Below are positions 56,923 through 57,751 of a stretch of DNA of 64,000 bases, piece by piece. A program made the translations under genes and the position numbers. Each line of letters starts with the position of its first letter. Position 1 is the first letter of the stretch. Under the pieces are notes generated by a model. The model did not search any database. It saw only the letters and a list, made by a program, of their open reading frames with translations, and was not told the DNA's origin. The stretch is from Callorhinchus milii. Lineage: Eukaryota. The stretch spans positions 16,308,001-16,372,000 of the forward strand of contig NW_024704743.1 in assembly GCF_018977255.1 (NCBI RefSeq), read 5' to 3'.

Positions 56923-57751
56923 TCTATAATAATAGACGTAATGTCTGTGCATCTGTGTATCCGCTAAGAACTCAATAACCGATTGACGTAGAGATATGAT
57001 TTATACCTCAGCGGAAAGGTCTTGCTACTAGGAGTGTCATGGGCATATTTTTTTCATGGATCTCCTATCGTCGATGAGATATGACCTCAACAAGCTCATC
57101 ATACATGTATGCCAGTTTTGCTTAAGGTGTAACATAGCGCTGCAGCTACACCTGGTGGCTCTGCCGACTACCCAGTGGTGCTGTGACATCGTGGTTCACA
57201 CAGCACATATGTAAGTACACACGCACTCAGACAAAGCCAAGCAGCGGGAACAAGATGGTGGTGTGAGGTGGAAGTTGCCTTGAGGGGCGTTGCCATTCGG
57301 CTGCTTTTCCTGTTGCTCCTTGGTGGCCCCAGGCTGGGCGGTGCCATGTTGGAGTTGGGCTGGGGGTGGGTGATGGTTGGCTGGGTAAGGCCGTGGGGTT
57401 TCCGGCTTCCTCCGCGCCACAGCCTAGAATTGACTAGCCCGGGAGAGTGAAGCCTGGGGCTCGATTTGAAGTCTCACCCGGGGCTGACGTTTGCCTCACC
57501 CGGTGTTGGGGTTTAGCCCCTCCACCTCTGAAGTTTAGCTCCATCCCCTCTGAAGTTTAGCCCCTCCCCCTCTCCCTCCCCCTATGTATATAATTCCGGT
57601 GGATCAATTTGGGATTGAGATCCCTCAAGGTTGTGGGACCAAGTTATAGCAGAGCTCAAAACCAAGGTTTTCCTGAACCTCAGCCATAACTCCACATTCC
57701 ATATTGGATCCGTTGGTTGCAAGCATAGCTGCAACGGGTCGGTACAGCTAG
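56923..57751 (+). mobile_element. Non-autonomous Helitron (829 bp)
   Basis: Inserted between A(56922) and T(57752) with no TSD. 5' end TCTATAATAATAGACGTAATGTCTGTG. 3' hairpin gatccgttg (57707-57715) / caacgggtc (57732-57740) ends 11 nt before the terminus, and the element ends CTAG (57748-57751). Confidence 0.82.
57511..57572 (+). repeat. 22-bp tandem repeat x2.8 inside the Helitron
   Basis: gtttagcccctccacctctgaa / gtttagctccatcccctctgaa / gtttagcccctccccctc. Confidence 0.85.

Follow-up and report, generated by a model that had tools for sequence, protein, structure and literature searches.

Genomic setting of the element

Two coding exons of POU6F2 lie on the minus strand of the window, by which we mean the whole stretch of 64,000 nucleotides analyzed here, and on its plus strand we located a repeat element of 829 bp at 56923..57751. 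The nearest coding exon found (22225..22316) is 34.6 kb away from the element. It is identical to a sawshark protein, P0010, at 29 of 31 residues (tblastn, E 2e-13) and is bordered by AG/GT splice sites. The next POU6F2 exon (3001..3229) also has splice sites, and its best hits, at 91–95% identity, are named POU6F2. The exon at 22316-22225 begins mid-protein. For the first ~65 residues of the protein, tblastn gave no significant hit in the window for the 6 of 10 queries with complete listings, and POU-domain motifs are absent from the window. The initial annotation had placed the element in a POU6F2 intron. The gene is borne out by the two minus-strand exons, whereas the intron position is something we infer, because the preceding coding exon lies outside the window. 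Most likely the element sits antisense within a long POU6F2 intron, upstream of the two exons and with the other exon beyond the window. Such an intronic copy is probably neutral.

The window is rich in LINE and tRNA-SINE remnants, in keeping with the earlier description of the genome as dominated by retroelements. One third of it has self-matches, and LINE-like reading frames occur. A remnant pair at 7409-7911 and 52659-53147 is about 91% alike. The element itself is flanked by a LINE-like 3' remnant on its left (55543-56288) and a SINE-like repeat on its right (58122-58427). Four tRNA-like matches (25128-25200, 32153-32224, 38328-38398 and 42066-42122), detected with Rfam and in two cases also with ARAGORN, are probably SINE heads and not tRNA genes. 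Simple repeats comprise a TATC microsatellite with 43 perfect units (24144-24314) and two repeats with longer units, one having 5 units of 20 bp (58711-58812) and the other 3 units of 28 bp (41712-41802). A second copy of the element was not found when it was compared with the 64-kb window by BLAST, the best other hit having an E value of 0.53.

Termini, target site and predicted hairpin

We read the 829-bp stretch as a putative non-autonomous copy of the Helitron1 type, on the basis of its termini, of missing target-site duplications and terminal inverted repeats and of the copy profile described below. At the left junction the sequence reads A at 56922 followed by TC at 56923-56924; at the right junction CTAG (57748-57751) is followed by T at 57752. 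These are the A|TC start and the CTAG|T finish that the initial annotation had reported. Its statement that a target-site duplication is missing was likewise confirmed for all 11 lengths checked between 2 and 12 nt. There is no terminal inverted repeat between the first and the last 30 nt of the element, and 17 of the 20 bases on its 3' side are A or T.

Minimum-energy folding and a stem search predict a subterminal hairpin at 57707..57740. In the fold of 57700-57755 position 57707 pairs with 57740, which puts the end of the hairpin 11 nt from the terminus, the distance given before. This fold has a z value of -2.5, with 7 of 200 shuffled sequences equally stable; for the segment 57708-57745 z is -2.1 (8 of 200 shuffles equally stable). 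The hairpin contains two overlapping perfect stems of 6 bp, 57710-57715/57732-57737 and 57716-57721/57730-57735. Its inner palindrome of 20 nt lies 16 nt from the end of the 829-bp copy, or 12 nt if the 4 extra bases of this copy are subtracted. In the left arm, at 57712-57719, a tandem doubling of 4 bases leads to a bulge that may be private to the copy at 56923..57751, although none of the alignment rows listed shows such a change.

A comparable stem (6 bp, 8–17 nt upstream) accompanies 9 of the 440 CTRRT sites of the window, and of these 9 only the one at 57748-57752 is a CTAGT. Ranked by folding energy, the 41 nt upstream of the element's CTRRT site take place 11 among the 440 sites. ATC occurs 1,992 times in the window, and the 5' mark is therefore uninformative by itself. 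Judged from the sequence alone, the Helitron signature exceeds chance only modestly. It rises above chance through the contigs of public runs, in which depth drops past 57758 and loose ends running through CTAG-T lead into differing flanks.

Copy profile of the repeat family

Contigs of four out of 14 public runs (X3, X5, X7 and X9) were aligned to positions 56295-58115 at 80% likeness. The alignment yielded 1,879 records for X5, 1,850 for X7, 359 for X3 and 74 for X9. According to the run index, which registers near-identical words only, 7 of the 14 runs contain part of the element, namely six runs of organism A and, faintly, X3. Run X9 is without the element's words, yet it covers the core; as we read this run as bisulfite-like, neither the absence of the words nor the missing cover of the 3' module counts. 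A hole in X7 at 56661-56904 was left out of the argument.

The depth of the aligned contigs changes in steps along the element, all parts of which are given here on the plus strand. The left flank has a depth of 8–12 in X5 and is still at 10.6 up to position 56904. Depth rises to about 490 (495 in X5) in bin 56905-56965. This bin holds the left terminal sequence (56923..56965), composed of TC, a TA-rich run and a GTCT-like stretch, which is a variant present in a minority of the family. It is followed by a conserved 5' core (56966..57148) that peaks at 56966-57026, with a depth of about 30,000 in X5 (30,064) and X7, 1,281 in X3 and 1,481 in X9, and declines towards 57148, with 960–2,200 in X5 and X7 (1,200–2,200 in X5) at 57027-57148. 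The middle of the element (57149..57636) is variable, G+C-rich and of low copy number (bin depth 27–241 in X5), and is likely to be acquired or subfamily-specific sequence. It contains a tandem repeat with a unit of 22 bp, present in 2.9 units (57511-57573). A subterminal segment (57637..57693) shows intermediate copy number, with a depth of about 1,400 (1,437 in X5) in bin 57637-57697. The right terminal module of 58 bp (57694..57751) ends in CTAG, carries 4 extra bases near 57737-57743 and reaches about 12,000 (12,269 in X5) in bin 57698-57758. Past the 3' end, in bin 57759-57819, depth is back to 10–11. X7 has a profile like that of X5, and X3 repeats this shape at a lower level. In depth the core exceeds the flank about 3,000-fold and the 3' module does so about 1,200-fold, values that give the order of size only, since summed contig depth is not equal to copy number.

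Loose ends are numerous behind position 57739: 110 contigs in X5, 117 in X7 and 18 in X3, with median lengths of 255, 255 and 103 letters. Their consensus continues through CTAG to T and then becomes A/T-rich, with an agreement of just 0.57–0.58. This low agreement beyond CTAG-T indicates many loci that share one end and have unlike flanks. Other loci sharing a terminus with the element, for which the initial annotation had proposed to search, are thus present in all three runs. We conclude that the 829-bp stretch belongs to a real, abundant and dispersed repeat family.

In X5, X7 and X3 alike, the family consensus has a T after CTAG. The 829-bp copy is preceded by an A. Contigs identical to the window cross the 3' junction of the copy in X5 (57713-58115) and X7 (57694-58115). 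Compared with the 829-bp copy, 5 and 6 contigs have a gap of 4 bases at 57737, and the end of the family is usually 4 bases shorter. The copy had been called intact-ended, a description to be qualified by the 4 extra bases ahead of the last 8, which set it apart from the usual family end.

The middle is bypassed by joints at 57003>57696, 57025>57694 and 57131>57694 (found in X7, X3 and X5/X7). Because the core is tied in this way to 57694 or 57696 in other contigs, core and 3' module constitute one type of element with a variable middle. At 57694 itself, X5 and X7 each have 49 contigs in which a GTCT-rich sequence resembling the left end stands directly before the 3' module. These loose parts are short (median 32–36 letters) and hint at a very short derivative made up of left end and 3' module.

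Position of the 5' boundary

The step in depth brackets the 5' boundary to bin 56905-56965, and the start at 56923 was read from the motif. No loose end at 56923 appeared among the 24 loose-end rows listed out of 643. Alternative 5' sequences before the core are found as loose ends ahead of 56971 and 56973, with about 50 contigs each. One contig of X3 (56909-57127) aligns for 14 bases to the left of the presumed start before it departs from the flank; it could represent an insertion orthologous to this one, a left end that reaches further, or chance extension of the alignment.

An empty site was not found among the 15 joints listed out of 77, and in both X5 and X7 the contigs run across the 3' junction without a break. 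A contig of the left flank in X5 (56890-56920 region) ends at 56919, 3 bases short of the element. As the contig at the right junction is unbroken, the simplest reading of this stop is a small allelic difference and not an empty allele.

These observations bear on an alternative in which the 3' end is that of a Helitron1, combined either with a wrongly placed 5' boundary or with a composite copy, the core being drawn from a larger set with other ends. The copy would then start to the left of 56923 or combine parts of two families. Depth in the core exceeds that in the 3' module about 2.5-fold and that in the first bin about 60-fold, at least two alternative 5' sequences precede it with about 50 contigs each, and the X3 contig aligns from 56909 on, all of which would suit such an arrangement. 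However, depth remains at the level of the flank through 56904 (10.6 in X5), and in other copies joints lead from the core to this same 3' module. A variable left end combined with steadier right ends is moreover a feature of Heli1Xen1 (PMC12001565). Taken as one claim, a misplaced boundary or a composite copy appears improbable to us.

Class of the element

Coding capacity was not detected: the element contains 15 stop-to-stop frames of at least 40 residues, and none of the 9 compared with Pfam matched a family. A match to a tRNA or an Rfam family was not found inside the element either. A tRNA-derived SINE or a MITE was rejected, as the element is without tRNA head, Rfam match, A-tail, terminal inverted repeat or target-site duplication. 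Nor does it correspond to a Helentron/HLE2, for it has no terminal inverted repeat and is bordered by A and T and not by T and T.

PMC11417382 distinguishes two Helitron groups: HLE1 has TC, an A|T target and a hairpin accompanied by CTRR, whereas short inverted repeats and a T|T target define HLE2. The element at 56923..57751 agrees with HLE1 in its CTAG end (a CTRR form), hairpin, flanking bases A and T, missing target-site duplication, dispersed copies, A/T-rich 3' flank and missing coding frame, and differs from it in the 4 bases that the 829-bp copy has in excess of its family close to the 3' end.

DINE-1-like elements have a GTCT-like stretch close to their 5' end. The presence of such a stretch, together with the internal 22-bp tandem repeat, could argue for another non-autonomous class (a Helentron/HLE2 of the DINE-1 type, a MITE or a SINE) in which the CTAG end is accidental. 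The CTAG-T end is family-wide, though, and the copy has neither terminal inverted repeat nor target-site duplication, neither tRNA head nor Rfam match nor A-tail. It lies between A and T, while HLE2 inserts between T and T (PMC11417382). We consider another class extremely improbable. Termini and hairpin, the steps in depth, the contigs leading through CTAG-T, the joints between core and module, the missing coding match, the divergence of the family and the presence of the class on record together argue for a real, old, non-autonomous Helitron1 copy, and we regard this reading as very probable.

Helitrons are not new to cartilaginous fishes. PMC11417382 lists the Repbase HLE1 proteins Helitron-1_CM from Callorhinchus milii and Helitron-1_AmRa and Helitron-2_AmRa from Amblyraja radiata, and reports HLE1 in 4 of 8 genomes of cartilaginous fishes (HELIANO), with 1,651, 4,818, 11,154 and 1 entries. 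By this listing Helitron-1_CM and the two skate Helitrons are of the same class as our element and, judging from the POU6F2 exons, which make the host likely to be a cartilaginous fish, probably of the same fish group. They encode Rep and helicase, which the 829-bp copy does not, and are natural candidates for its autonomous partner. With these three on record, the suggestion of the initial annotation that the element might be uncatalogued is weakened. It would be another Helitron1 of known class at most, and its family is perhaps already in Repbase. Going by titles and the beginnings of abstracts, we found no paper devoted to such a Helitron family of cartilaginous fishes. The literature search also yielded no main text naming Helitron-1_CM, Helitron-1_AmRa or Helitron-2_AmRa and nothing relevant for the terminal words of the element. 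The word 'rolling' does not occur in the available part of PMC12952989.

Age and origin of the family

Most copies are less than 95% alike. At least 95% likeness to the 829-bp copy is reached by 284 of 1,879 records in X5 and by 254 of 1,850 records in X7. In X3, none of the 359 records reaches 99%, and a match to the right flank has 25 substitutions and 8 gaps in 212 bases. The loose-end consensuses of X3 are nevertheless near-identical to those of X5. Judging from its divergence, X3 looks like a related second species. The low likeness of most copies and the subfamilies held in common with X3 point to an old family, which would predate the split between the host and the species of X3. It is likely to have been inherited vertically in cartilaginous fishes as an ordinary old passenger.

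Exact-pattern scans of viral contigs gave no match to the motif of the 3' end and none to that of the core. Four metagenome matches to the 19-base end motif were dismissed as chance, since BLAST gave no extended likeness (one hit of 13 bases, E 0.46). The pattern scans and the run index covered viral and metagenome sequences and public runs, and they detect close matches only. They argue against a transfer in recent times; an older one may have occurred.

Among the described ends that were compared, those nearest to the element belong to the vertebrate family Heli1Xen1. According to PMC12001565, this family has TC and CTAG ends, a TA-rich left end and more variation at the left end than at the right, as in our element. 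The stems read CCCGTTA...TAACGGG in Heli1Xen1 and CCGTTG...CAACGGG here, a shared motif of 6–7 bases and not a family match. Heli1Xen1 occurs in amphibians, lizards and bichirs, and is young (0.58–10.74 million years) and transferred, according to the same paper; sharks or cartilaginous fish are not mentioned in the available main text of PMC12001565.

The initial annotation had suggested that the 5' sequence resembles that of Lep1-type Helitrons of invertebrates and had proposed the element as a candidate for horizontal transfer. In build the two are alike, by description: Lep1 (PMC4038834) likewise has a TC start, an A|T target and a short conserved 5' core combined with a variable acquired part, and a CTRR closes this acquired part. 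Lep1 differs in being defined by a consensus of 134 bp with a CTRY end. A recent transfer of a Lep1-type Helitron from an invertebrate to a fish would also have a parallel in the transfer of Helitron1 elements documented among vertebrates (PMC12001565). Against such a transfer, parts of the element were found in only 7 of the 14 runs, six of organism A plus X3, the four metagenome matches had no further likeness, both viral scans were empty, and the family is diverged and common to X3. For Lep1, the accessible text of PMC4038834 names insects, bracoviruses and a microsporidian; neither fish nor vertebrates appear in it. We find a recent transfer from an invertebrate very improbable, and a special link to Lep1 is not supported.

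A broader scenario would be a Helitron1 family of modular build that numbers thousands of copies, whose left ends and middles can be swapped on a right end of 58 bp, unannotated in a cartilaginous-fish lineage called nearly free of DNA transposons, and that entered an ancestor of this lineage by an old transfer from the stock of vertebrate Helitrons of the Heli1Xen1 type. As a whole, we consider this scenario rather unlikely.

Possible mechanism and significance

For Helraiser, PMC4778049 reports that the left end is required, that the hairpin is a stop signal and that insertion places TC next to A and CTAG next to T, with a preference for A/T-rich DNA that is strongest on the 3' side. The anatomy of our element is in keeping with each of these features. 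The mixed A/T-rich 3' flanks of the family and the 17 A or T bases among the 20 that follow our copy fit this preference. By analogy, a RepHel transposase supplied in trans may copy the non-autonomous element (PMC4778049). RepHel would nick at the 5' TC and the strand would be displaced until the hairpin halts the enzyme, leading to a cut at CTAG; the freed strand could then be inserted between A and T in A/T-rich DNA without duplication. Over successive rounds the variable middle may have arisen by internal deletion and acquisition, and the copies would have been inherited vertically since before the split between the host and the related species.

In a survey of the 974-Mb genome of Callorhinchus milii, Helitrons amount to 0.0068 percent and all class II elements to 0.14 percent (PMC6817897), and the elephant shark has been called poor in DNA transposons (PMC4350176 and PMC6817897). 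A share of 0.0068 percent of 974 Mb corresponds to about 67 kb of Helitron sequence. A family with a core at about 3,000 times the depth of the flank would exceed this amount, and rolling-circle elements would thus be under-counted, if the host is C. milii or a near relative. Otherwise the finding carries little weight, being one more non-autonomous Helitron1 where the class is already recorded, and its value is that of an annotation. Old insertions that are shared could act as phylogenetic markers. At 33 of the 39 places where X9 differs, the change is G>A or C>T, as in a bisulfite-converted library, and this run could serve to read the methylation of the family.
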